DNA from: Minisyncoccota bacterium
Lineage (GTDB): Bacteria > Patescibacteriota > Minisyncoccia > Phycocordibacterales > UBA9973
Length of the DNA stretch: 64,000 nucleotides
NCBI GenBank assembly: GCA_041674285.1
Contig: JBAYVZ010000005.1
Coordinates: 5,176 to 69,175, forward strand
Direction: 5' to 3'
The position numbers and the translations under genes are program-made. How positions within the stretch are numbered: position 1 is the stretch's first letter; each line of letters begins with the position of its first letter. Shown here piece by piece: positions 1,897-53,051 of this stretch. The notes under the pieces were generated by a model. The model was not told the DNA's origin. It was given only the letters and a program-made list of their open reading frames with translations, and made no database searches.

Positions 1897-2400
1897 ATGA
1901 TAATCAAACATAAAGAACAAAGAGTTGGAGTGTTTATTGACACAGCCAATCTATATCACAGCGCAAAAAACCTCTATAAGAGAAAGGTAAACTTTGGTGC
2001 TGTACTAAAAGACGCAGTAGCAGGACGTAAACTAGTCCGTGCAACAGCATACGTGATCACTAGTGAGGGAGGCGACGAAAAGAGTTTCTTTGAAGCTCTC
2101 ACAAAGCTAGGCATAGAGACAAAGACAAAAGACCTCCAAGTATTTTCAGGTGGAGCAAAGAAGGGCGACTGGGATGTAGGTATAGCAGTAGATGCTATGA
2201 AGATGGCACCCCGTCTCGATGCAGTAGTACTAGTAGCAGGAGATGGGGACTTTATCCCTCTCGTAGAGTACCTCCGAAATACATATGGCACACAAGTAGA
2301 AGTGGTTTCATTTGGGAAATCTGCTTCTATGAAACTAAAAGAAGCTGCCGATGACTTCCTAGACTTATCAGTGAGTCCTCAAAAATACCTAATGAGATAA
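1897..2400 (+). CDS. NYN-domain (LabA/DUF88-like, PIN-like nuclease fold) protein
   Basis: RVGVFIDTANLYHS...GDWDVGIAVDAM...VLVAGDGDFIPLVEYLR pattern of NYN/LabA proteins. Confidence 0.75.
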   Translation: MIIKHKEQRVGVFIDTANLYHSAKNLYKRKVNFGAVLKDAVAGRKLVRATAYVITSEGGDEKSFFEALTKLGIETKTKDLQVFSGGAKKGDWDVGIAVDAMKMAPRLDAVVLVAGDGDFIPLVEYLRNTYGTQVEVVSFGKSASMKLKEAADDFLDLSVSPQKYLMR

Positions 2401-2405
2401 ATTGT

Positions 2406-3320
2406 ATGGAAAAGCTTTGGCCAATCACATTAACGAGGAAAATATCTGATATACACTGCGGTGGTTTCACCATGGCAGAGGAAGAGAGTCTCGGCTTCAA
2501 AGCAGGTGAATTATTTGAGGCACCGAATGAGCTTTTTGAACTAGTGACATTTCACAAGAAAAATCTTTCAACAAATTTACATAAATACAAAGAGGTAATA
2601 ATAAAAAATAACGATTACACCGAGGTCAGACCTGGGGTTTTTGCTCATGCAGGTGCAGTTATAGATGAGCAAGTGGTCTTTAATACAAAAAATGGCTTGG
2701 TCATAGTAGAAAAAGGGGCGCATATAAATCCATTTAATTATATAGCTGGGCCAGTACGTATAGACGAGAGTGCGACAATTAACCCGCATTCAAATATTTC
2801 AAATTCTTATATAGGTAAATACTGCAAAGTGGGAGGTGAAGTCTCAAATTCTATAATAGAGTCATACAGCAACAAAGGTCATCATGGATACCTGGGTGAT
2901 AGTTATGTAGGCTCATGGGTAAATATCGGTGGGGGCGCGTCAACATCAAATCTTAAAAATACATACGGAAAGATAAAGCTAGGTGGGGTAGAGACCGGGG
3001 AGCAATTCCTAGGATCAGTCATCGCCGACCATGCAAAAATAGCCATAAATGTATCTATATATACAGGAAAAGTAATCGGCGTGGCCGCTCACGTATATGA
3101 CACAGTCACAATAGATGTGCCCTCATTTACAAATTATATTTCAAAAGAAAATATGACTATTTTACCCGTTGATATAGCAGTAAAAATAGCAGGACGAATG
3201 CAAGAACGTCGGGGTATAAATACTATAGAGGAGGACAAAGCTATGCTATCATATGCTTATAATGCCACCGAAGGTGAACGAAAGAGTGCTGGCGTTACAG
3301 AAGGTAAATTAGCATTTTAA
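2406..3320 (+). CDS. left-handed beta-helix (hexapeptide-repeat) transferase-like protein
   Basis: Repeated [LIV]-G-x4 hexapeptide pattern (IGKYCKVGGEVSNSIIESYSNKGHHGYLGDSYVGSWVNIGGGASTSN). The start codon is uncertain. Confidence 0.55.
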   Translation: MEKLWPITLTRKISDIHCGGFTMAEEESLGFKAGELFEAPNELFELVTFHKKNLSTNLHKYKEVIIKNNDYTEVRPGVFAHAGAVIDEQVVFNTKNGLVIVEKGAHINPFNYIAGPVRIDESATINPHSNISNSYIGKYCKVGGEVSNSIIESYSNKGHHGYLGDSYVGSWVNIGGGASTSNLKNTYGKIKLGGVETGEQFLGSVIADHAKIAINVSIYTGKVIGVAAHVYDTVTIDVPSFTNYISKENMTILPVDIAVKIAGRMQERRGINTIEEDKAMLSYAYNATEGERKSAGVTEGKLAF

Positions 3321-3324
3321 ACCA

Positions 3325-3459
3325 AAAAATTGCAAATTTTTTCTTCGCATATCTTTTCTAGGGTACACAAATTTTTTGCTAAAAATTTGTGAGAGTCTAG
3401 CGCCGGTCGCGCTGTAGAAGCCCCTAAAAAAGATAAGCGTGCGACAATTTGCAATTTTT
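3325..3459 (+). repeat. palindromic intergenic element (family 2), copy A
   Basis: TTCTTCGCATATCTTTTCTAGGG...CCCCTAAAAAAGATAAGCGTGCGAC with inner hairpins GTAAATTTTT/AAAAATTTAC-like and a GC-rich hairpin. Outer arms AAAAATTGCAAATT / AATTTGCAATTTTT. Ends 10 nt before the tdh ATG. Confidence 0.8.
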
Positions 3460-3468
3460 AATAAAACT

Positions 3469-4416
3469 ATGTCAAAAATTTTAATTATTGGGGCGTGCGG
3501 TCAGATAGGGGTAGAGCTTACTTTGGCCCTACGAAAGATTCATGGTAATGAAAATGTAATAGCATCTGATATCCGTGGAGAGCATGCCATGCTCGCAGGT
3601 ACTGGACCATATTACACACTAGATGCTACTGACGCAGAGGGGACTCGAGCGATAGTAGAAAAAGAAGGAGTCACAGATATATACTTACTCGCTGCATTAC
3701 TATCTGCAACAGGGGAGAAGAATCCAAAGCTATGCTGGGATTTGAACATGAATAGTCTCAGACAAATTCTAGATCTAGGGGTAGAAAAGAAATTAAAAAT
3801 CTTTTGGCCTAGCTCTATCGCAGTATTCGGACCGACAACACCTAGAGAAAATACACAACTTCACACTATCATCGAGCCTACTACTATGTACGGAGTGACA
3901 AAGTACGCAGGTGAGATGCTCTGCCAATACTATGCAAATAAATTCGGACTAGATGTCCGCTCTGTGCGATACCCGGGCCTCATCAGCTGGAAGAGTGAAC
4001 CAGGTGGTGGAACTACAGACTATGCAGTAGAGATATTTTATGAAGCTATCAAGAATAAAAAATATTCTTGCTTCCTCTCAGAAAATACTTATCTACCGAT
4101 GATGTATATGGATGATGCGATCCGTGCGACGATCGAGCTGATGCAGGCGCCACTTGAAAATATAAAGACTCGAATGTCATACAACTTATCTGCAATTAGC
4201 TTTTCTCCTACTGAGATAGCAGGTGAATTGAAAAAGCACATGCCAGAATTTGAGATATCTTATGCTCCGGATCACCGCCAAGCTATCGCCAACTCTTGGC
4301 CTGCATCTATCGATGATTCTGATGCACGTGCAGACTGGGGATGGAAGCATGAATTTGATCTAGAAAAAATGACAGAGGTAATGCTTGAGAATTTAAAAAA
4401 TAAATTAGCCAAATAG
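3469..4416 (+). CDS. tdh: L-threonine 3-dehydrogenase, extended-SDR (UDP-galactose-4-epimerase-like) type
   Basis: MSKILIIGACGQIG NAD-binding motif, NVIASDIR and a YGVTK (YxxxK) catalytic motif. Adjacent to kbl. The track ORF from GTG 3439 lies inside repeat A, so the ATG at 3469 is preferred. Confidence 0.72.
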   Translation: MSKILIIGACGQIGVELTLALRKIHGNENVIASDIRGEHAMLAGTGPYYTLDATDAEGTRAIVEKEGVTDIYLLAALLSATGEKNPKLCWDLNMNSLRQILDLGVEKKLKIFWPSSIAVFGPTTPRENTQLHTIIEPTTMYGVTKYAGEMLCQYYANKFGLDVRSVRYPGLISWKSEPGGGTTDYAVEIFYEAIKNKKYSCFLSENTYLPMMYMDDAIRATIELMQAPLENIKTRMSYNLSAISFSPTEIAGELKKHMPEFEISYAPDHRQAIANSWPASIDDSDARADWGWKHEFDLEKMTEVMLENLKNKLAK

Positions 4417-4420
4417 ATAC

Positions 4421-4546
4421 TATAAATTCGTCGCACGTGTATCTTTTTTAAGGGCTTCTGCAGCGCGACTGGCGCGAAGCCTGAGTAAATTTTTAGCAAA
4501 AAATTTACGTACCTTAAAAAAGATATACGAAGAAAGAATTTATAAA
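4421..4546 (-). repeat. palindromic intergenic element (family 2), copy B (inverted relative to A and C)
   Basis: Its reverse complement aligns almost base for base with copy C (…CTTCGTATATCTTTTTTAAGGTACGTAAATTTTTTGCTAAAAATTTACTCAGGCTTCGCGCCAGTCGCGCTGCAGAAGCCC…). Ends 9 nt before the kbl ATG. Confidence 0.8.
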
Positions 4547-4554
4547 TTATTCAT

Positions 4555-5763
4555 ATGTACACAAAAAAATTTACAGAGTCACTCTCTCTTGATTTGAAAA
4601 ATATCGAAGAGAGTGGAAAGTTCAAAAAAGAAAAGATGATCGAGAGAGTTCAAGGTTCTCATATCAAGATAGGGGAGCAGGATTTTATCATGTACGCCTC
4701 AAACAATTATCTCGGACTAGCAGGTAGTAAATTCTCAACAGATGCAAACAAAGAGGGATTGGAGAAATACGGTTTTGGTATGGCATCGGTCAGATTCCTA
4801 TCCGGCACTCAGACTATACATAGACAACTAGAGGAGAGGATAGCAAAATTCATCGGCACAGAAGATGCGATCATATATTCTACAGGATTCATGGCCAACC
4901 TTGGATTGTTTGCTACGATAATAAATGAACCTCGTGGAAGTGAAGCTCCCTACAAAGATGTTATATATAGCGATGCAAACAATCATGCTTCAATCATCGA
5001 TGCATTCAAGCTCTGCAAAAAAGAAAATCTAGACAAGAGAATCTACAAGGGTGGGGACCTAGCGATGCTTGAGCAATTCCTGTCAGAAGATAAAGATAAA
5101 AATTACAGAACAAAGATTATCGCTACGGACGGGATATTCAGCATGGAGGGGAATTCTGCTGATTTGAAAAAGCTTGTAGATCTAGCTGAAAAGTACGAGG
5201 CCCTACTATTTGTAGACGACGCACACGGTATAGGAGTGATGGGTGATCTCGGAAGAGGTACACCAGAGAGCTGTGATGCACTCGGGAAAGTGGACATCGT
5301 ATCTGGTACATTTGGCAAGGCGCTCGGTGGAGCAGTCGGTGGGTATATAGGAGGTAGTAGAGAGCTCGTAGAATATCTGCGACAAAAATCTCGCACATAC
5401 CTATTCTCAAATGCGATGCCAGCATCGATAGCATACACGGGGATAAAGACACTTGACCTACTAGAGAGCGATGATACACCAATCAAAAAAGTAAAAGAAA
5501 ATGCATTATACTTCAGACAGAAACTCGAAGAGAACAATCTGCCGACACTGCACGGCAATCATGCTATCGTCCCACTGATGATAGGTGATGCGAACAAAGC
5601 AGCCGAGATGTCTAGAAAACTTTTTGATGATGGTATCTATGCAGTCTCACTATCATTCCCAGTAGTACCAGAGGGCGAAGCACGAATCAGATTCCAACTT
5701 TCTGCACTACATACAAAAGAGGACATAGACGAGACAATAGAAAAAATAAAGAAACTATACTAA
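4555..5763 (+). CDS. kbl: glycine C-acetyltransferase (2-amino-3-ketobutyrate CoA ligase)
   Basis: Alpha-oxoamine synthase pattern with PLP-lysine motif SGTFGKALGG and DDAHG. Paired with tdh. Confidence 0.85.
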   Translation: MYTKKFTESLSLDLKNIEESGKFKKEKMIERVQGSHIKIGEQDFIMYASNNYLGLAGSKFSTDANKEGLEKYGFGMASVRFLSGTQTIHRQLEERIAKFIGTEDAIIYSTGFMANLGLFATIINEPRGSEAPYKDVIYSDANNHASIIDAFKLCKKENLDKRIYKGGDLAMLEQFLSEDKDKNYRTKIIATDGIFSMEGNSADLKKLVDLAEKYEALLFVDDAHGIGVMGDLGRGTPESCDALGKVDIVSGTFGKALGGAVGGYIGGSRELVEYLRQKSRTYLFSNAMPASIAYTGIKTLDLLESDDTPIKKVKENALYFRQKLEENNLPTLHGNHAIVPLMIGDANKAAEMSRKLFDDGIYAVSLSFPVVPEGEARIRFQLSALHTKEDIDETIEKIKKLY

Positions 5764-5767
5764 AAAA

Positions 5768-5793
5768 ATAAAAGCCACAATTGTGGCTTTTAT
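5768..5793. terminator. bidirectional hairpin terminator between kbl and glmS
   Basis: ATAAAAGCCACAA/TTGTGGCTTTTAT palindrome flanked by A and T runs, between convergent genes. Confidence 0.7.
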
Positions 5794-5797
5794 TTTT

Positions 5798-7633
5798 TTA
5801 TTCTACTGTTACGCTCTTTGCTAAATTACGAGGCTTGTCTACATCTGCTCCACGTAGTACTGCCGTATGATATGCCAGTAGCTGTAGTGGTATCACAGAT
5901 AGTATCGGTATCCACTCATCAGGAACATTTGGAATCTCGACAATGTGATCAAAAATATTTTTCAATTCTTCGTTGCCACTGCGTACTATACCGATAGTCA
6001 GCGCTCCACGAGCTTTGACCTCTTGGACATTTGATATTACTTTTTCAATCAATGCATTATTTGTAGCGACTACAATAACAGGGAAATCTTTTTCTACTAG
6101 TGCTATAGGACCATGCTTCATCTCTGCTGCTGGATAACCCTCAGCATGGATATAAGAAATCTCTTTTAATTTCAACGCCCCCTCGAGTGCGACAGGGAAT
6201 AGTACTCCGCGCCCCAGGAACAATGCATTATCTTTTTCTTTTAAAATCTCGGCGATCTTTTTAACCTTTCCTTCTTCTTTCAATACTTGCTCTACCTTGT
6301 CTCCGATAGTAGACAATTCTTGAACCAAGAATACATATTCATCATGGCCTAGAGTGTCGCGATCTTTTGCTAGTAGTAGAGAGAGTAGTGATAGTATCAC
6401 AGCCTGACCAGTAAAAGCTTTTGTCGATGCTACTCCGATCTCGGGACCGACGTGGATATATGAACCTGCGTCAGTGATACGTGCGATAGATGAGCCGACT
6501 ACATTTGATATACCATATGTCATAGCACCGGATTCACGAGCGATCTGTAGTGCAGCTAGTGTATCTGCTGTCTCTCCGGATTGTGATATAGCTATTACGA
6601 TATCGTCTTTGTAAATTATCGGATTGCGATAACGGAACTCTGATGCATACTCTACTTCTACTGGAATCCTAGCTAGAGTCTCTATCAGATATTCACCGAC
6701 GAGCCCTGCGATCCAAGATGTGCCACAAGCAGTGATGATGATCCTCTTTGCATTTTTAAATTTATCAGCCATCTCTTCTATTCCACGTAGATGCACAGTA
6801 TTATCGGGCAGTATGTGGCCACGGAGTGCGTCGTGTATAGTACGAGCCTGCTCAAAAATTTCTTTTTGCATATAGTGATCGTATCCACCTTTTTCCAGCA
6901 TCTCAGCTTCGATATTCAGCTCCTCTATGAATGGAGTATGAGCTACACCATCGATAGACTTTACATAGAATTCACCATTACGCATTACTTTTGCCATATG
7001 ACCATCTTCTAGGTAGATCACACTCTTTGTGTACTCTACGATAGGGGACGCATCCGAAGCGATAAAAAATTCTTTTTCTCCGATGCCGATCACGAGTGGG
7101 CTACCCTTGCGTGCTACGATCAATGTATCGGGATCTTTTTCGTCTAGCACTACGATCGCATAAGCTCCTACTACCTGAGATAGGGCCTCGCGAACAGCCT
7201 CTTCGGTACTTAGATTGTCCTTTATTTTTACTTTTTCTATCAGACGGGCAAGGACTTCTGTATCAGTGTCACTCTTGAAAGTATCTCCATCTTTGAGGAG
7301 GGCAGTCTTTAAAGTAAGATAATTTTCTATAATACCGTTATGTATCAAGGCTATAGACCCAGATTCTGAGAGGTGGGGGTGAGCATTGCGATCCTCTGGT
7401 GCACCATGGGTGGCCCAGCGAGTATGACCTATGCCTATATTCCCAGCAGGATTATGGTCTTTTGCATACTTAAAAAGCTCGGCAACCTTGCCTTTCTTCT
7501 TGAAAACATTCATTTTTCCATCTAGAAGTGCAACTCCAGCTGAATCATACCCTCTATATTCGAGCCTTTCTAAACCCTTTATAATAATGGGAAAGGCTTC
7601 TCTTTTTCCTATGTATCCGATTATTCCACACAT
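5798..7633 (-). CDS. glmS: glutamine--fructose-6-phosphate aminotransferase
   Basis: MCGIIGYIG Ntn-amidotransferase N-terminus (Cys must follow the initiator Met, so the start is trimmed from 7660), two SIS domains, C-terminal ...KPRNLAKSVTVE. Confidence 0.95.
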   Translation of the reverse strand: MCGIIGYIGKREAFPIIIKGLERLEYRGYDSAGVALLDGKMNVFKKKGKVAELFKYAKDHNPAGNIGIGHTRWATHGAPEDRNAHPHLSESGSIALIHNGIIENYLTLKTALLKDGDTFKSDTDTEVLARLIEKVKIKDNLSTEEAVREALSQVVGAYAIVVLDEKDPDTLIVARKGSPLVIGIGEKEFFIASDASPIVEYTKSVIYLEDGHMAKVMRNGEFYVKSIDGVAHTPFIEELNIEAEMLEKGGYDHYMQKEIFEQARTIHDALRGHILPDNTVHLRGIEEMADKFKNAKRIIITACGTSWIAGLVGEYLIETLARIPVEVEYASEFRYRNPIIYKDDIVIAISQSGETADTLAALQIARESGAMTYGISNVVGSSIARITDAGSYIHVGPEIGVASTKAFTGQAVILSLLSLLLAKDRDTLGHDEYVFLVQELSTIGDKVEQVLKEEGKVKKIAEILKEKDNALFLGRGVLFPVALEGALKLKEISYIHAEGYPAAEMKHGPIALVEKDFPVIVVATNNALIEKVISNVQEVKARGALTIGIVRSGNEELKNIFDHIVEIPNVPDEWIPILSVIPLQLLAYHTAVLRGADVDKPRNLAKSVTVE

Positions 7634-7785
7634 ATAATATAATAAGCGGGCCAAATCCATCTGCTTTGTTGTCGATTCCGTTTACTCCCGCAATGTAGAT
7701 AACTACATCTTGGTCATAATACTCATCGACGCCTCGCATCTGCATTCGTCCGGCTGATTATATGATTATACATTTAAACCATTTA

Positions 7786-7917
7786 TTTTAAAAATCCTTT
7801 CTTCGCATATCTTTTCTAGGGTACGTAAATTTTTTGCTAAAAATTTACTCAGGCTTCGCGCCAGTTGCGCTGTAGAAGCCCCTAAAAAAGATACGCGTGC
7901 GACAGATTTTGCAAAAT
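7786..7917 (+). repeat. palindromic intergenic element (family 2), copy C
   Basis: CTTCGCATATCTTTTCTAGGGTACGTAAATTTTTTGCTAAAAATTTACTCAGGCTTCGCGCCAGTTGCGCTGTAGAAGCCCCTAAAAAAGATACGCGTGCGAC. Near-identical to A and to rc(B). Confidence 0.8.
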
Positions 7918-19882: not shown

Positions 19883-22882
19883 ATGTCAGGACACGAATCA
19901 CATGGGCACGAAAAAAAAGTTGTCATCCGAAAACCTATCAAAAAATATGAAAAGGAGGAAAATATAACTGATGAATATATAGAAAACCTGGGGGCAGAAC
20001 TCATAATAATAAGAGACCAGCTGGCAGATCTAGAGGAGAGAATGCACGGGAAACTGAGCTCAAAGGATAAACACGACATAGAACACCTAATACATGAAAA
20101 AACAGAGAGGGAAATACATCTCTTAAATGAACAGGCTCGTGCTTTTATTTATTCCATAAAAGAAGAAGAGGCACTAACAAAAGCAAGAGAGAGGGTAAAT
20201 TTTTTAAAAAAAGACATTCCCCATGAGAAAATCCCAGAACTAAAAAAGAAAAAAGAGAATGAGCTTACTGAACTAGAAGAAAACATAATTACACAAAGCT
20301 TAAAAGCAGAAAAGAACAAGGAAAATATTGAGGATGCAAAAATACAAATTCAATTAAATAGAACTCGATCTGAGTATGCAAAAGAATTCAAAAAGCACAA
20401 TAAAGGAATTAAAACGAGGAAGGCAATAGACTCTGTATCTACTTATTTAAAAAATATCGGAATAAAGACAAAGAACAAATTAAACTCAATAAGACCATCC
20501 TCTTGGGATTGGACACGGGATGATTTTGCAAAGGGGAATAATGGACAAAAAAACCTTTTAAAGAAAAAAGATATTTCAGAGTATGAGACACCTGAGCTAA
20601 AAGCAAAGAGGGGAGCCTATGATGCAGCTCGTCTTGCTTTTGCAGATAGAATGTACGAGAAGAGAAAAAACGAGCTCGCAAGCGCAAGCTCAATAACAGA
20701 AGAAGCAGCAGTGGAAGAACTCAGAGAAAAAGAACTTCACAAAGCAGAAGCAAGTGGTGTGAATATGAGCCTGGACGACATAAAAGAATGGGAAGAAATA
20801 TTTAAGCGTAAAGTAAAATCCGGTGAATACAAAGATGAAATAGAAGAAATAAAAAACAGAGGAAAGATAGATTCTACAGAACAGATAAGGAGATTACAAC
20901 AATTTAAGGCAAAAGAAATACTTCAAAAAACTTTCTTTGATGAAAGAAGGAGGGTATATGAGGAGAGTGGTGTACCAGAGAGGGGTGCAGTTTTGAAATT
21001 GATGCATGGGTATGCGAGCCTGCCAAGATGGAAAAGAATCACACTGTCTACAATACTATTCACTGCTGGTGGAGTAACAGGGGCAATCCCATTCGCCCCT
21101 TTTGCTGGAGCAATGATAGCAAAATACGGCATAATATCTTACGCCGGGATGAGATTTGGTTTAAGTGCTTTTACAGCAGGAGTAGCAACAGAGGGCGCAA
21201 GGGGAGCAGATCGGTGGAATCACAAAAAAGATGAAGAATTTAAAAAAGAACAAGCGAGAAAAAGAAAAGAATCAGAGGATCAATTTGCAAATGGAGAGAT
21301 AAGCAAAGAAACACATGAAAAAAATCTTATTTCCATAGAAATAGATGAAAATGAAGATAGAAAAAAAAGAATGAGAATAAAGGCTGTAGTTGGAACACTA
21401 CTAGGTGTTGGAGCGGGAGCTGGGGCTTATCAATTAATAGGTGGAATGATGACCCCAGAAAATGAACACATAACACCACCAATGACAAAAGGAGAGCACT
21501 TTACTAAAGCGCCTGCACCAGTTCAACTAGAAAAAACCCTCGATGAATTTGCAGTGAAAGCAGACAGGGTAGAGGCAGTACCTACACCCCCAGCACCGAT
21601 TAGTACAGGAGGAGATCCAGTAATGTTAAAATACCCAGATCTAAATATCGACCAGACAGAGTTTAAAAATATGGAAGGGGGGCTAGCTACTACATCAGAT
21701 TTCACTCCACATACTACAGCAGATGAATTCAACCCAGGTAATTCAAATGCAGACCAAACACCTGCAGTAGAAAAACCAAAATACAATTTTGGAGATTATA
21801 ATCCAGATGAAAGGAATCTCAACCAAGAGAATCCTGAATCCGGGGAGAGATTAGAACTACCAAAGACCCCAGCCCCAGAGGGGCAAGAGAACCCTGAATC
21901 TGGAGAAAGGTTAGATATACCAGAGACTCCAGATCCAACTGGCCAAGAGAACCCTGAATCTGGAGAAAGGTTAGATATACCAGAGACTACAGGGGATGCA
22001 ACAGAGCCAAAAATAGAGAGTCCTACATCTACAGAAAATACAAATACTGAATCTGATATAAATAATAGTACTGAAAAGCCTAAACTTAAAATAAATTTTG
22101 AAGAGACTCAGAAGATCCAAGAAAATCAATTGACTGAACTTAAAAATGAACTAGGCGAAAAAGAATACAACAAGATAATTAAAGATCTAGAATCTAAAAA
22201 CATTCCCTACAAATCAGACTCAACGGCATTCCGAACAATTTCAATAGGAGAAAGTACTAATGAAAATTTTGCGAGAACTATTGCTAGAAATTATGCTGGT
22301 TCTCAGGTTCTAGAACAAACAGGTCAAACACAAGCAACAATAGGTAGTAGCCGAATCTTAGATTCACACATGTACAAACTTCCTAACGGGGAATACCGAA
22401 GTGTGATAATATTTGAAACAGAAAAAGTAAACGGGCAAGATGTTGGCGAGCTTTTAAACACAGAAAAAAGCCCAATAACAGAAGTCCCAGAGAGCACTGG
22501 AAATGGGGAAGAAATGAAAATCAACCCTCAGGAGACAAAAGGAAGTATGGAGGCTCCAAACATAGAAAGTGAGACTAACCTTGCCATTGAAAATATAATA
22601 AAGGAAGGGAAATACAAGGATATAGTTAAAAACGTAGAAATGCTTGGTTATAAATTTGAAGGGTCTCGCAGTGCAGATGTTACTGTTCTAAAATTCCTAG
22701 AATCTTACAAGTCTGGTGAATACACATTAGCAATAGACTCAGCAGATGCTCCTACACACAATCTTGCGTCTCAAGCAATTAGCCAGAGACAAGACCTCGT
22801 AAACACAGCAGAAAAAATGAATCTATGGAAAAAAACTGACAGTGGATATCATATGATTTCTATTCGTTTAATCAAAAAATAA
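19883..22882 (+). CDS. large membrane protein with N-terminal coiled-coil and repeat-bearing C-terminal ectodomain
   Basis: 999 aa. Has a K/E-rich N-terminal third, hydrophobic segments (ITLSTILFTAGGVTGAIPFAPFAGAMIA, AVVGTLLGVGAGAGAYQLIGGMM) and three QENPESGERL(D/E)(I/L)P repeats. Confidence 0.7.
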   Translation: MSGHESHGHEKKVVIRKPIKKYEKEENITDEYIENLGAELIIIRDQLADLEERMHGKLSSKDKHDIEHLIHEKTEREIHLLNEQARAFIYSIKEEEALTKARERVNFLKKDIPHEKIPELKKKKENELTELEENIITQSLKAEKNKENIEDAKIQIQLNRTRSEYAKEFKKHNKGIKTRKAIDSVSTYLKNIGIKTKNKLNSIRPSSWDWTRDDFAKGNNGQKNLLKKKDISEYETPELKAKRGAYDAARLAFADRMYEKRKNELASASSITEEAAVEELREKELHKAEASGVNMSLDDIKEWEEIFKRKVKSGEYKDEIEEIKNRGKIDSTEQIRRLQQFKAKEILQKTFFDERRRVYEESGVPERGAVLKLMHGYASLPRWKRITLSTILFTAGGVTGAIPFAPFAGAMIAKYGIISYAGMRFGLSAFTAGVATEGARGADRWNHKKDEEFKKEQARKRKESEDQFANGEISKETHEKNLISIEIDENEDRKKRMRIKAVVGTLLGVGAGAGAYQLIGGMMTPENEHITPPMTKGEHFTKAPAPVQLEKTLDEFAVKADRVEAVPTPPAPISTGGDPVMLKYPDLNIDQTEFKNMEGGLATTSDFTPHTTADEFNPGNSNADQTPAVEKPKYNFGDYNPDERNLNQENPESGERLELPKTPAPEGQENPESGERLDIPETPDPTGQENPESGERLDIPETTGDATEPKIESPTSTENTNTESDINNSTEKPKLKINFEETQKIQENQLTELKNELGEKEYNKIIKDLESKNIPYKSDSTAFRTISIGESTNENFARTIARNYAGSQVLEQTGQTQATIGSSRILDSHMYKLPNGEYRSVIIFETEKVNGQDVGELLNTEKSPITEVPESTGNGEEMKINPQETKGSMEAPNIESETNLAIENIIKEGKYKDIVKNVEMLGYKFEGSRSADVTVLKFLESYKSGEYTLAIDSADAPTHNLASQAISQRQDLVNTAEKMNLWKKTDSGYHMISIRLIKK
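21824..21990 (+). repeat. 60-bp in-frame tandem repeat, about 2.8 copies
   Basis: Units start at 21824, 21884 and 21944 (CAAGAGAAYCCTGAATC...). Units 2 and 3 are identical over about 46 nt. Confidence 0.85.
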
Positions 22883-48491: not shown

Positions 48492-51005
48492 TTACTTTAC
48501 GTAAAAGTTTAATTTTTGCTGACTTGTACCACCATCCATATCGTATATTTTTACCAGTATTGTATTTCCTCCACCGTCTATACCTAGCTCACTAGGGATA
48601 AATGATACACCATAAGGATCATTTTTTAAGGAAGTTAGATAATTGTTGTTTACAAATATATCTATTTTTTGTATTGGACTCTGGCTCTTTACCTCTACTT
48701 TAAAAGATATTGTCTCATCTTTATTGTAGGGTGTGTTTAGTAGGTTTTTAATTGTAAAACTCGGTTTTGTCGATGAGTTGTGGATATTGTCATAAAACAG
48801 TGGTTTATCTTTTAGACTCACGTATTTATATTTGTAAGAATTTTTTGACCACCAGTTCTGTACACTTATCTCAAAGTGATCATACAGGGAATCACTCGAA
48901 GGTCCAGGAGTCTTTTCATTCTTTGGGTCTTTTTTGTCTACCCAGTACAAGATAGTATGAACATTTGTTAGTGATTTTTCTTCAATACTTTCTTTTGGGG
49001 TGAACTCTGTCGCTAATCCTCCAGATTTTTTATCAACCTTGAAAGTATCACCACCTTGCCAGTATCCTCGGAGTAGGGGATTCAAATTTGAATCTACTTC
49101 ATCTGGCTTGTTAAATGTTTCATCTTTGGGTAGTTTTGTTAATGCTTGCATCATTATTTGGTTCCAGATTGGTCCAGCGAGAGATACACCACCTTTTTTC
49201 ATTGGTATATTATCATTGTTACCCACCCATACACCCACCACCACAGATGGGGTATATCCTATAGTCCAAGCATCTTTGTTGTCATTTGTTGTTCCAGTCT
49301 TTACTGCAGCCTGGATACCTTCTGGTAGTACTAGAGCTGAGTTTGCTCCGTATGTAGGGATACGAGCATTGTTGTCGGTAAGAATGTCTGCCAAAATTCT
49401 TGTTGAATTTGGATTCAATATTTGTTCTGGTCTGTCTTTGTATTCTTCTAATATATTCCCTGTACCATCTGATATTGAAAGAACTCCTGTATTTGGATGT
49501 CTGATACCTTCTGTGGCGAATACGCTATATACAGAAGTCATATCTAAGAGCTTTGTCTCTCCACCTCCGATCACTAGAGACAATCCATATCTATTTGCAT
49601 CATTGAGTGTAGTCACACCCAGGTCGTGAGCCATCTTTATAGCATCTTGTACTCCTACTAGGTATAGAAGTTTTACTGCTATTACGTTTATGGACTGAGC
49701 TAGAGCATCTTTGAGTGTCATCGGTCCATGGAATGCATTGTCGTAATTGTCTGGATTATAACAATCTGTTTTTTTGTTTTTACCTTTTGGGTTGCTATAT
49801 GCATCACAACTTGTAGAAAATTCTGTAGGTACGTCGAATAGTACTGTATCTTTTGTGTATCCCTTTTCAAATGCGGCTGCATAGACTATAGGCTTGAATG
49901 ATGATCCCGGCTGTCTCTCTGCTGTAGCTACATTGAAATTCCCATCTATACTTTTATCAAAATAATTTCGTGATCCAACCATAGATAGTATTTGACCTGT
50001 CTTTGGATCCATTACCACTGCGGCTGCATTTTTTCCATCCCAGTTTTTTTCATTATCCAGAGCTCTTTCTAGGACTATAGCTTCTGCTTTTTTCTGTAAT
50101 TCAAAATCAAGAGTTGTGGTAACTTTTAATCCGCCGTTCTCTACCATCTCTACTCCATATTTCTTTTCCAAGTAATCTTTTATGAAGAATACAAAGTGTG
50201 GAGCTGCTATATACATCGGTTGCGCAGGTAGGAATTCTACTTTTTCTGCCACAGCTTCATTGTATTGATTTTCTGTGATGAATTTTAAATCCAGCATCCT
50301 TTTTAATACTAGATTTTTCCTTGTATCTAGGCGTGCGCGACCCTTATAAGGGGAGTAGTATGTAGGACCATTTGGTATCGCTGCTAGGTATGCAGATTCA
50401 GCGAGTGTCAGATCTATTGGTGCTTTACCAAAGAATGCTTTTGAAGCTTCCTCTATTCCGTAAATATTTCCACCATAAGGGGCTTCGTTTAGATACAGAG
50501 CTAGAATTTCGTCCTTGTTCATTACTTTTTCAAGCTTGATTGCCAGGATCCATTCTTTTATCTTTCTGGTCACAGTCCTCTCTGATGTCAGTAATGTCTG
50601 CTTTATGATCTGCTGAGTGATAGTCGATCCACCTTGGATTTTTCCACCTGTCATATTTGCCCACACAGCACGAATCAGTGACTTTAATCTAACTCCGTGA
50701 TGTTGGTAGAATTCAGAATCTTCTATAGCAACAGTGGCATTCTTGCTATATGTACCCATAGACTCATAGGGGATGACAGTACGTTTTATGTTGCTGTGTA
50801 CGTCATATAATATGATGGTTCCAGTCCTGTCATATATCTTTGTAGAGCTGGCTATTTTGCGCTCGGTAAAGAGTTTAAAGTCTGGTAATTGTAATGTGCT
50901 AGTCCAGATTGCTAATATACCTACGACCAATAGTCCAAAACCAAAAATACCCAAAATCCAATTTTTGAGCTGGTGTTTATTAAATTTAAACTTAATTTTC
51001 TTCAT
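48492..51005 (-). CDS. class A penicillin-binding protein (glycosyltransferase + transpeptidase)
   Basis: GT51 motifs EDSEFYQHHG and GGSTITQQ. Transpeptidase motifs SSFKP (SxxK), SIN and KTGTT. N-terminal TM anchor. TGtTATTAT -10 box 6 nt before the ATG. Confidence 0.9.
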   Translation of the reverse strand: MKKIKFKFNKHQLKNWILGIFGFGLLVVGILAIWTSTLQLPDFKLFTERKIASSTKIYDRTGTIILYDVHSNIKRTVIPYESMGTYSKNATVAIEDSEFYQHHGVRLKSLIRAVWANMTGGKIQGGSTITQQIIKQTLLTSERTVTRKIKEWILAIKLEKVMNKDEILALYLNEAPYGGNIYGIEEASKAFFGKAPIDLTLAESAYLAAIPNGPTYYSPYKGRARLDTRKNLVLKRMLDLKFITENQYNEAVAEKVEFLPAQPMYIAAPHFVFFIKDYLEKKYGVEMVENGGLKVTTTLDFELQKKAEAIVLERALDNEKNWDGKNAAAVVMDPKTGQILSMVGSRNYFDKSIDGNFNVATAERQPGSSFKPIVYAAAFEKGYTKDTVLFDVPTEFSTSCDAYSNPKGKNKKTDCYNPDNYDNAFHGPMTLKDALAQSINVIAVKLLYLVGVQDAIKMAHDLGVTTLNDANRYGLSLVIGGGETKLLDMTSVYSVFATEGIRHPNTGVLSISDGTGNILEEYKDRPEQILNPNSTRILADILTDNNARIPTYGANSALVLPEGIQAAVKTGTTNDNKDAWTIGYTPSVVVGVWVGNNDNIPMKKGGVSLAGPIWNQIMMQALTKLPKDETFNKPDEVDSNLNPLLRGYWQGGDTFKVDKKSGGLATEFTPKESIEEKSLTNVHTILYWVDKKDPKNEKTPGPSSDSLYDHFEISVQNWWSKNSYKYKYVSLKDKPLFYDNIHNSSTKPSFTIKNLLNTPYNKDETISFKVEVKSQSPIQKIDIFVNNNYLTSLKNDPYGVSFIPSELGIDGGGNTILVKIYDMDGGTSQQKLNFYVK

Positions 51006-51077
51006 AAGTTAATAATAACATACTATATTCTATAAATATGGCAATTGTGGGATAATTTAATTATGAGAAAAAAATCA

Positions 51078-51192
51078 TCAACCCCGTCCTCTGATTACAG
51101 AGTCCACCCCTCAAGAGGGGAATTAAATATGAATACAAAAAATACATCCACCCCACCTTTTGATTACAAAAGGCACCCCTCAAGAGGGGAAT
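51078..51192 (+). repeat. two direct family-3 units
   Basis: TCAACCCCGTCCTCTGATTACAGAGTCCACCCCTCAAGAGGGGAAT (51078-51123) and TCCACCCCACCTTTTGATTACAAAAGGCACCCCTCAAGAGGGGAAT (51147-51192). Confidence 0.8.
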
Positions 51193-51599
51193 TTTGGGAT
51201 ACAGGTTCTTTGTATCCATATTGGGAAATTCCTAAAAATAAACTTTTAATCTCACGAGCAAAAGAATTAAGAAAAGCTGGCAATTTAGCGGAAGTTATTT
51301 TTTGGAAAACTTTCAATGATAAAAATAAAATAGGTTTTGATATTGATCGGCAAGTTATAGTAGGGAACTATATTGTCGATTTTTTTATCCCGGAATTGGG
51401 TTTAGTTTTTGAAATAGACGGATCGAGTCACGATAATAAAATAGATTATGATGCCGAACGGGATGCATTTATGAATGACCTTGGATTGTTTGTTATTCGA
51501 ATTCCTGATGTAGATGTGAAGAAAAATATGGAAAGTGTCTATAATTTTGTAACTAATATAATTTTAGAAAGAACAAATAAACTCAAGGGTTTTTCTTAG
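51129..51599 (+). CDS. DUF559 (Vsr-like) endonuclease-domain protein
   Basis: C-terminal ...AEVIFWKTFNDKNKIGFDIDRQVIVGNYIVDFFIPELGLVFEIDGSSHD...RDAFMNDLGLFVIRIP matches the DUF559 pattern. The true start is uncertain because the 5' end overlaps repeat DNA. Confidence 0.65.
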   Translation: MNTKNTSTPPFDYKRHPSRGEFWDTGSLYPYWEIPKNKLLISRAKELRKAGNLAEVIFWKTFNDKNKIGFDIDRQVIVGNYIVDFFIPELGLVFEIDGSSHDNKIDYDAERDAFMNDLGLFVIRIPDVDVKKNMESVYNFVTNIILERTNKLKGFS

Positions 51600-51680
51600 A
51601 AACACTTGCAATAAACAACCTTGTATGGTATAGTTTATCTAATGGAATCTTCTTTGCTCTTTGTTAGGTTCCAGATTTAT

Positions 51681-51719
51681 ATGCTCTCGGAGGGTCCAAT
51701 CTCCGGGGGCATTTTTTTA
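51681..51719 (+). terminator. intrinsic terminator after the DUF559 gene
   Basis: ATGCTCTCGGAG-GGTCCAAT-CTCCGGGGGCAT followed by TTTTTTT. Confidence 0.65.
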
Positions 51720-51780
51720 TTGGTTCATAACTCCAATCAAAATACCCACGACATATGTCTGAAAACATTAATTTTTTAAA

Positions 51781-51826
51781 ATTCCCCTCTTGAGGGGTGG
51801 CATTTGTACTCAAATGACGGGGTGGA
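51781..51826 (-). repeat. family-3 unit in inverted orientation
   Basis: ATTCCCCTCTTGAGGGGTGGCATTTGTACTCAAATGACGGGGTGGA is the reverse complement of the unit consensus. Confidence 0.8.
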
Positions 51827-51857
51827 TGTATTGAATTTGGTGTGGTAAAGTATAAAT

Positions 51858-53051
51858 ATGATAAAGAATGATACAAATGAATTGCTAAATCGGGGAATAG
51901 AGAATATCTACCCTTCAAAAGCATACCTAGAATCTCGTATTGCAAAGGGTGAAAAGCTCACTATCTATCTAGGAGTAGATCCTACTGGTCCGACACTACA
52001 CCTCGGGCATGCTATACCACTACTCAAACTTTCAGAATTTCAAAAAGCTGGCCATAAGATCATCCTTCTTATGGGTGATTTTACTGCGATGATCGGTGAC
52101 CCGACAGACAAGGGTACTGCTCGTGTGCCTCTAACCCACAAGCAAGTGATGGCGAATTTGAAAAATTACAAAAAGCAGGCAAGCTCAATTATTTCATTTT
52201 CTGGCAAGAATGCAGCTCAAATAAAATTCAATTCAAAGTGGCTCGGTAAGATGAACTTTGAAGACGTGCTGAGTCTCGCATCAAATATGACAGTACAGCA
52301 GATGCTAGAACGTGATATGTTCTCAAAGAGAATGGAAGAGGGCAAGCCAATATTTATTCATGAATTTATGTATCCACTCATGCAGGGATACGACTCTGTA
52401 GCTATGGATATAGATGGAGAGATCGGGGGCAATGATCAGACATTCAACATGCTCCAAGGTCGCAACTTGATGAAGACTCTCAAGAATAAAGAAAAATTTG
52501 TCATTACCGTAAAACTCCTCGAAGATAGTAGTGGTAAAAAGATGGGCAAGACAGAGGGTAATATGGTCGCCTTATCAGACACCCCAGAGGAGATGTATGG
52601 CAAGGTCATGAGCTGGACTGACGGCATGATCCTCCCAGGATTTGAATTGTGTACTACTGTATCCCTCGAAGATATGGAAGCTATGGCTACCGATATTGCC
52701 AAGGGTATGAATCCTCGCGATCTGAAGATGCGCCTAGCTCGTGCGGTTGTGAATACTTTTTACGGAGAAAAGAAAGCATTGGATGCAGAAAATAATTTTA
52801 TCTCTACATTCCAAAAATCTGAAATACCAGAAGATCTGCCTGAGGTAAAAGTAGGGGATGGGACACTACTAGTAGATGTACTCCTCGCAAACAAGATAAT
52901 TGCTTCAAAGACAGAATTCCGCAGGCTCGTAGATGAGGGTGCTATTACCAATCTGGATACTGATAAAAAGGTGGATAGTCATACGGCACATGCTGTATCA
53001 GCTGTATACCGCATAGGTAAAAAGCGCTTTTGTAAAATTAAAATAGGATAG
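51858..53051 (+). CDS. tyrS: tyrosine--tRNA ligase
   Basis: HIGH-type motif PTGPTLHLGH, KMSKS-type motif KMGKT and a C-terminal S4-like domain. Confidence 0.93.
   Translation: MIKNDTNELLNRGIENIYPSKAYLESRIAKGEKLTIYLGVDPTGPTLHLGHAIPLLKLSEFQKAGHKIILLMGDFTAMIGDPTDKGTARVPLTHKQVMANLKNYKKQASSIISFSGKNAAQIKFNSKWLGKMNFEDVLSLASNMTVQQMLERDMFSKRMEEGKPIFIHEFMYPLMQGYDSVAMDIDGEIGGNDQTFNMLQGRNLMKTLKNKEKFVITVKLLEDSSGKKMGKTEGNMVALSDTPEEMYGKVMSWTDGMILPGFELCTTVSLEDMEAMATDIAKGMNPRDLKMRLARAVVNTFYGEKKALDAENNFISTFQKSEIPEDLPEVKVGDGTLLVDVLLANKIIASKTEFRRLVDEGAITNLDTDKKVDSHTAHAVSAVYRIGKKRFCKIKIG

Follow-up and report, generated by a model that had tools for sequence, protein, structure and literature searches.

The analysed window is a 64-kb stretch covering the origin region of an AT-rich Patescibacteria (Paceibacteria) genome. 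On the minus strand it carries jag, yidC, yidD and rnpA, followed by dnaA, dnaN, a class A PBP (minus strand), a DUF559 gene and tyrS, with the names of the small genes taken from their sequence motifs and from two syntenic loci whose gene tables carry Pfam labels. The closest tyrS and DUF559 homologues are annotated as Candidatus Paceibacterota or Nomurabacteria. Between the PBP and tyrS genes, the DUF559 gene is bracketed by inverted copies of a short two-hairpin unit, and a gene-free pair of the same unit lies between yidD and yidC. The features are as follows.

51047..51845 (+): the whole inserted cassette (right boundary uncertain, 51840-51845), consisting of a leader, two [ATG + unit] modules, the DUF559 gene, a 180-bp spacer with a terminator, an inverted unit and the short outer sequence atgtattgaattt...
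51078..51123 (+): unit copy 1 (TCAACCCC, hairpin CTCTG/CAGAG, CCACCCCTCAAGAGGGGAAT), part of the first 69-nt [ATG 51064 + leader + unit] module; covariance model score 57.3 bits, E 1e-16
51147..51192 (+): unit copy 2, directly abutting the conserved protein core and preceded by ATG 51129, the start that matches the ~156-aa homologues; 56.7 bits
51129..51599 (+): DUF559 / EDxHD-type nuclease ORF (156 aa from ATG 51129, 178 aa from ATG 51064), with the conserved core starting at W51 (51195) and the catalytic motif E-I-D-G-S-S-H-D at 51411-51434
51681..51718 (+): intrinsic-terminator-like hairpin with a T-run (13-pair stem followed by TTTTTTT) inside the 180-bp spacer between the ORF and the right unit
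51781..51826 (-): inverted unit forming the right end of the cassette, with the inverted repeat continuing outward to about 51832; 62.6 bits
44494..44531 (-): left (reverse) unit of the gene-free head-to-head pair, with a short first hairpin, between the yidD stop and the yidC start; 46.8 bits
44553..44598 (+): right (forward) unit of the gene-free pair; 62.7 bits

The 19-nt core CACCCCTCAAGAGGGGAAT occurs 5 times in the window (44494-, 44580+, 51105+, 51174+, 51781-), against 0.01 expected by chance. A covariance model built from 41 units and run with filters off over all 64 kb finds exactly the five units listed above and nothing else above 15 bits, which confirms the repeat copies of the preliminary description and places its coordinates within 1 nt. 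Four details, however, should be added. The minus copy of the gene-free pair is only 38 nt long, because its first hairpin is short (CCC-TATC-GGG). The inverted repeat around DUF559 extends to 55 nt (51141-51195 / 51778-51832, 89% complementary). The two upstream copies belong to a 69-nt tandem duplication, in which each copy has its own ATG (51064 and 51129). Finally, the gene-free pair is head-to-head with the GGGGAAT ends facing outward, while in the DUF559 cassette these ends face inward, so the pair is not simply an empty cassette. The two units of the pair together can fold into a ~40-bp hairpin (-63 kcal/mol, z = -8.3).

The unit consists of a head, (T)CCACCCCG-YC, a first hairpin of free sequence, and a tail, (C/G)CACCCC-TC-AA-GA-GGGG-AAT, which contains the second hairpin. 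In a scan of one genome per species for the tail only, 139 of 153 tail matches also have the head within 70 nt, although the head was not part of the search pattern, and 113 different hairpin-1 sequences are observed. On 41 distinct units, hairpin 1 has a covariation score of 0.353, compared with 0.083 for shuffled controls (0 of 500 reach the observed value) and 0.04-0.06 for slid registers. The central pairs use three or four Watson-Crick pair types, and only 1 of 41 sequences is unpaired there. Hairpin 2 never varies in this set, which, however, follows from how the set was collected. Hairpin-1 loops are strand-asymmetric, with C(TTC/TAC/TGC)G occurring about 30 times and its reverse complement about twice, which suggests that one strand is the one under selection for folding. 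The hosts include Patescibacteria, Gracilibacteria, Bacteroidota (among them cultured Pedobacter, Flavobacterium and Parasediminibacterium), Kapabacteria/Ignavibacteria, Thermotogota (a Thermotogaceae MAG), Bacillota, Nitrospirota and others. Rfam 15 searches at gathering score on the whole window and on 15 loci from other phyla, as well as at E<=10 on 51000-51900, give no match to the unit; the only near-matches in the latter region are terminator-driven.

Comparison with related loci shows that the cassette is an insertion. Loci L128 and L129, in which tyrS is 90% and 83% identical, respectively, keep the order rnpA, rpmH, dnaA, dnaN, an 87-aa ORF, PBP(-), tyrS(+), but have only ~57 bp between PBP and tyrS, where the window has ~800 bp. 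The empty sites read ...tataaatatggcaatt-atgc-taaagtataaatATG and contain no unit, while the window reads ...tataaatatggcaatt-[insert]-(tg)tggtaaagtataaatATG. Locus L126 (tyrS 96% identical) has an unrelated 3.6-kb insertion at the same spot. An independent case is provided by L120 and L121, two close relatives that share one pilus operon and differ at three of its junctions: the cassette lies after pilB only in L121, whereas a pair + small ORF + cassette after pilM and a pair with a 67-nt spacer after pilC are found only in L120.

The association between gene and units is specific to a DUF559 clade. At the protein level, 114 of 116 homologues of the window protein have a unit-encoded N-terminus, of which 109 have at least one tail-encoded module (...HPSRGE) just before the conserved core and five more have the module in another frame. 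In addition, 67 of 120 end in FPS*, which is AA-TTC-CCC-TCT-TGA-GGGG read in frame, with the stop codon in the loop of hairpin 2. The preliminary description regarded in-frame translation of the upstream copies as a probable artefact of the repeat. However, the conserved protein begins at W51, right at the unit boundary, with no internal start codon, and thus at least one unit must be translated, although AlphaFold predicts residues 1-63 to be disordered and residues 66-181 to form a confident fold.

At the DNA level, among 80 metagenome loci, 36 of 41 with both sides available and identity of 62% or more have the layout (+)gene(-). In contrast, a sister group at roughly 52-63% identity is (-)gene(+) (12 complete loci and 7 partial), and in 14 more distant loci no A- or B-type unit is detected. 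Other subfamilies behave differently: a 44%-identity DUF559 in locus L052 has its own perfect 28-nt inverted repeat of a different sequence, and a 37%-identity DUF559 in locus L123 has no units, which only shows that the association is specific to the clade. Among 33 window-clade cassettes there are 21 different flanking contexts, and the upstream gene is co-oriented in 28 of 29 cases. The window is the exception, since its cassette lies in the divergent PBP/tyrS promoter region.

While the window clade forms stand-alone ORFs of 156-172 aa, because the reverse unit closes the frame, the sister clade mostly lies inside long open frames. In HsdS the insert is located between the central conserved helix and the second target-recognition domain, with empty RFP-GATG-EMQDSELG against filled RFP-H-[unit(s)-DUF559-unit]-KY..-EMQDSELG, as checked at the DNA level. 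In CysRS it lies just after the KMSKS loop, and the host alignment resumes exactly across the insert (query 381→657 aligns to 3sp1 residues 311→317), so no host residues are lost. Further examples are a class I aaRS, a MiaB-like gene in a genome that appears to read UGA as Gly, the PriA C-terminal region and a Type III methylase. According to Pfam, ten host-embedded proteins contain only the host domains plus DUF559, and no intron or intein domains were found. A homing-endonuclease-type gene can persist in-frame within tRNA synthetases and R-M specificity subunits without an intron or an intein. Gene-free units or pairs also lie in-frame inside PheT, PurD, arginase, KsgA (three genomes), TatD and ribosomal protein L10 of related genomes, although in the window itself the gene-free pair is intergenic.

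As for the enzyme, the ORF matches PF04480 with E 2e-22 (79.5 bits against a cut-off of 20.6, aa 70-169). The search yielded 421 homologues, and E123, D125 and H129 of the motif FEIDGSSHD (residues 122-130) are invariant in 32 aligned homologues. The core of the AlphaFold model has pLDDT mostly 75-95, and its closest solved structures according to Foldseek are NGO0050 (3hrl, TM 0.84) and the catalytic domain of the homing endonuclease I-Bth0305I (3r3p, TM 0.80, rmsd 2.7 A). DUF559 genes are assigned to the EDxHD homing-endonuclease family of Taylor et al. 2011 in PMC9403480. Unlike I-Bth0305I, however, the protein lacks a long N-terminal DNA-binding region, and its cassette is bracketed by structured inverted repeats, occupies many unrelated sites and is not inside an intron or an intein.

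Homologues are annotated by JGI as 'very-short-patch-repair endonuclease', and the unit-encoded segments explain the odd N- and C-terminal tails and fused ORFs of such genes, a widespread annotation artefact. Similarity to Vsr itself, which shares the PD-(D/E)XK fold of the Vsr type, is nevertheless weak (Foldseek E 0.26). NCBIfam reports only a sub-threshold DUF559 model (50 bits against 218) and no Vsr equivalog, and no Dcm-type cytosine-methyltransferase domain appears among the Pfam-annotated neighbour genes of the four related loci examined (L120, L121, L123 and L125), while in the window only PBP, tyrS and one ORF with no Pfam match were checked. PADLOC gives only weak domain-level hits. 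A phage vector is not supported either, with one exact hit in 2.9 million viral contigs and only four weak protein hits in phages.

Based on these results, the reading of the preliminary description, a small selfish or mobile cassette carrying a Vsr-like nuclease, is supported, and the opposite case, in which other DUF559 genes are not associated with the repeat and the repeat is distributed as a generic REP-like terminator, is not borne out. The explanation favoured here, with moderate confidence, is that window 51047-~51845 is a compact selfish DNA element, in which an EDxHD/Vsr-fold (DUF559) nuclease gene is bracketed by inverted copies of a two-hairpin unit and which moves as a whole, units included, into new sites. 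In this view the element has no promoter of its own (promoter-like hits are no more frequent than chance) and relies on host transcription, and its repeats can be read through by the ribosome, being open in five of six frames and encoding Pro/Ser/Gly/Arg/Glu peptides predicted to be disordered. In the window's clade the left unit forms the N-terminal leader of the nuclease, and the right unit, read in its one closed frame, supplies the stop codon (..K-F-P-S-TGA), whereas in the sister clade the units face the other way and stay open, so the cassette can sit in-frame inside host genes. Gene-free units and pairs, such as 44494-44598, are then the non-autonomous members of the same family.

How the element moves is inferred. 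It is only tentatively suggested that the nuclease recognises the conserved palindromic tail (TTCCCC..GGGGAA) or the structure formed by the units and makes the breaks that mobilise both cassettes and gene-free units, with host repair completing integration. Clustering of 843 ORFs within 1.5 kb of units reveals only housekeeping families and DUF559, with no transposase or other recurrent gene family. Homing into a pre-existing gene-free pair is rejected for the sites that could be tested, since the empty alleles at PBP/tyrS, pilB/RR and HsdS contain no unit and none of 120 HsdS relatives has a pair only. A further hint, although from a single site, is that the HsdS target TTCCCCGGTG-C-CACCGGTGAA (palindrome TTCCCCGGTGCCACCGGTGAA) is a near-palindrome whose ends resemble the unit tail. 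On the other hand, no biochemical or direct genetic evidence links the nuclease to the units, a nuclease alone cannot join DNA strands, and no transposon is known whose only enzyme is a PD-(D/E)XK nuclease. Target-site duplication could not be defined, with only a possible 4-nt AATT flanking the window insert and the HsdS junction showing replacement of 12 nt. Apart from HsdS, the insertion sites share no obvious target. In addition, about 110 of 119 fetched 8-kb unit loci have no DUF559 nearby, so action in trans has to be assumed, and the gene-free pair in the window has the opposite unit topology to the cassette.

Among the alternatives, a classical free-standing homing endonuclease gene, which cuts cassette-free alleles at specific host sequences and is copied in by double-strand-break repair, with the units acting as passive adaptors (linkers, insulators, start and stop providers), seems unlikely but is the strongest. 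It agrees with the fold and motif, with the same HsdS position being occupied by two DUF559 subfamilies and with eight cassettes sharing the pilB context. However, it is at odds with the 21 contexts among 33 cassettes and with empty sites that are unrelated in sequence, and it explains neither the many gene-free units and pairs nor why the unit type co-varies with the nuclease clade. Even less likely, the units may be an independent RPE/MITE-like family spread by an unseen transposase or recombination, with DUF559 genes as frequent passengers or preferred landing sites. Indeed, units greatly outnumber DUF559 genes and also flank other small genes, such as hicA/hicB-like ORFs and small unknown ORFs. 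In contrast, the bracketing of DUF559 is near-universal and precisely in register, with the start through one unit and the stop inside the other, across hundreds of homologues at different sites, and the whole cassette arrives at sites that had no units.

Two further readings appear very improbable. A host-serving REP-like element (terminator, mRNA stabiliser or processing site) next to an ordinary repair nuclease would fit the stable hairpins, the common UNCG- and GNRA-type loops and the position of the pair inside the rnpA-yidD-yidC-jag operon, but units lie antisense (40), sense (22) or between convergent genes (17) relative to their neighbours, often inside ORFs, and their presence varies between close relatives. 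The lack of Rfam and Vsr equivalog matches also speaks against it. As for a genuine functional N-terminal repeat domain, with the DNA similarity being merely its consequence, the conserved HPSRGE frame (109/116) is in its favour, but the segment is predicted to be disordered, and the same DNA unit is used in other frames (PLKRGI, TPQEGN), on the opposite strand and in non-coding DNA. Moreover, the 42 different hairpin-1-encoded pentapeptides are consistent with the base-pair covariation measured on the DNA units. The non-coding and antisense copies effectively refute this reading.

No description of this unit, or of DUF559 genes bracketed by repeats, was found in the literature searched, which did not cover subscription journals. 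The element combines features of a free-standing homing-endonuclease gene, REP/RAYT-like bracketing and in-frame repeats similar to Rickettsia palindromic elements (RPEs; Ogata et al. 2000). RPEs are likewise short palindromic repeats, apparently found both in intergenic DNA and in-frame inside conserved protein-coding genes, where they are translated as extra peptide, and they seem to have no known enzyme. The units described here (38-46 nt per unit, ~85-105 nt per pair) are shorter than RPEs appear to be, occur across many phyla and have a candidate autonomous partner (DUF559). As in REP/RAYT (REPIN) systems, a single enzyme gene is flanked by inverted copies of a hairpin repeat that also occurs as dispersed gene-free inverted doublets. 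The enzyme, however, is a PD-(D/E)XK (Vsr/EDxHD fold) nuclease and not an HUH Y1 (IS200/IS605-like) transposase, the cassette itself is insertion-polymorphic and can lie inside genes, and the core sequence is conserved across phyla, whereas REPs are lineage-specific. Bacterial MITEs and their autonomous TIR transposons (for example, Correia elements) also have terminal inverted repeats, short non-autonomous derivatives and insertion polymorphism, but here no DDE or serine transposase is encoded, no target-site duplication could be demonstrated, and the inverted repeats are translated as part of the gene.

It remains possible, though doubtful, that this is a previously unrecognised class of mobile DNA whose only enzyme is a roughly 130-residue Vsr/EDxHD-fold nuclease, which would mobilise both its own cassette and a pan-bacterial family of RPE-like hairpin units. 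The ends of such an element would be built to be transcribed and translated through, allowing it to live inside operons and even in-frame inside essential genes (CysRS, a class I aaRS, MiaB-like, HsdS) without any intron or intein splicing. In that case it would supply the missing autonomous partner for in-frame palindromic elements.

The window copy is atypical and may be decaying. In contrast to its relatives, it has 180 bp between the stop codon and the right unit, including the strong terminator-like hairpin, and this spacer has no relatives among the fetched loci. The ORF ends in KGFS* instead of KFPS*, which may represent a decayed right unit (AAGGGTTTTTCTTAGAAAC against AAATTCCCCTCTTGAGGGG), but this is suggestive only, since the covariance model does not detect it. 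The ORF itself is intact and keeps all invariant residues.

The closest relative (L126, with tyrS 96% identical) carries a different 3.6-kb insertion at exactly the PBP/tyrS spot where the window has the DUF559 cassette. This insertion (L126:2391-6000, the equivalent of window 51047-51845) contains a 191-aa ORF, a TrmB-like gene, and a 593-aa ORF. The divergent promoter gap is therefore an insertion hot spot.

In addition to the A-type unit, many Patescibacteria loci contain a second unit subtype (B), which consists of TCCACCTCC, a hairpin, and TACTCCTCAAGAGGAGAAT, and is represented by positions 9598-9635 and 10509-10554 of the pilus operon locus L120 and by positions 9531-9568 of locus L125. 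The B-type unit is usually paired head-to-head with an A-type unit 6-9 nt away. Folded as a hairpin, an A/B pair would contain G-T and C-A mismatches, which is notable given that the nuclease has a Vsr-type fold. In the same 2 loci small unrelated ORFs (95 aa, membrane-like, and 119 aa; L120:9663-9950 and L125:9636-9995, respectively) lie between a unit pair and the DUF559 cassette and are part of the inserted block. These ORFs may represent cargo.

Units also flank other genes. In the Bacteroidota locus L001 (Ca. Brachybacter, positions 2400-4060) they surround ORFs that, judging from their sequence alone, look like a hicA/hicB toxin-antitoxin pair, with the HicA-like ORF reading into a unit. 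In the Kapabacteria chromosome OY761611.1 (locus L050, positions 2612-7068), unit pairs recur every 2126 bp three times, which suggests a tandemly repeated ~2.1-kb block bounded by units. As for the loci L189 (positions 3203-4504) and L193, a DUF559 cassette lies inside an ORF that appears to be MiaB-like according to its radical-SAM motif, in a genome where in-frame TGA falls at conserved Gly positions (apparently code 25, Gracilibacteria/Absconditabacteria). The element, thus, also lives in recoded lineages.

The window contains further repeats:
1897, 8055, 11736, 23389, and 34822 (+), and 43583 and 44807 (-): ATGs preceded by the 7 copies of a second, unrelated repeat family, each element spanning ~120 nt upstream of the ATG.
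3313-3450, 4421-4551, and 7771-7909: repeats of 126 nt at ~90% identity, in direct and inverted orientation.
21824-22003: three tandem 60-nt repeats (67-75% identity).

Each of the 7 copies of the second family has a left arm CCCGTTAGAGAT at a constant -116 to -118, followed by a covarying hairpin (GGAAATG-TAAA-CATTTCC and variants) and then by TATCTCTAACGGG, which ends exactly at the start codon of unrelated genes (jag, yidD, a UvrD-like helicase, an NYN-like protein, and others). The two arms can pair and would sequester the start region. This family is not in Rfam. The 126-nt repeats, in turn, contain a GC-rich segment (GCGCCGGTCGCGCTGTAGAAGCCCC...), while the tandem 60-nt repeats are probably a coding repeat within a large ORF.
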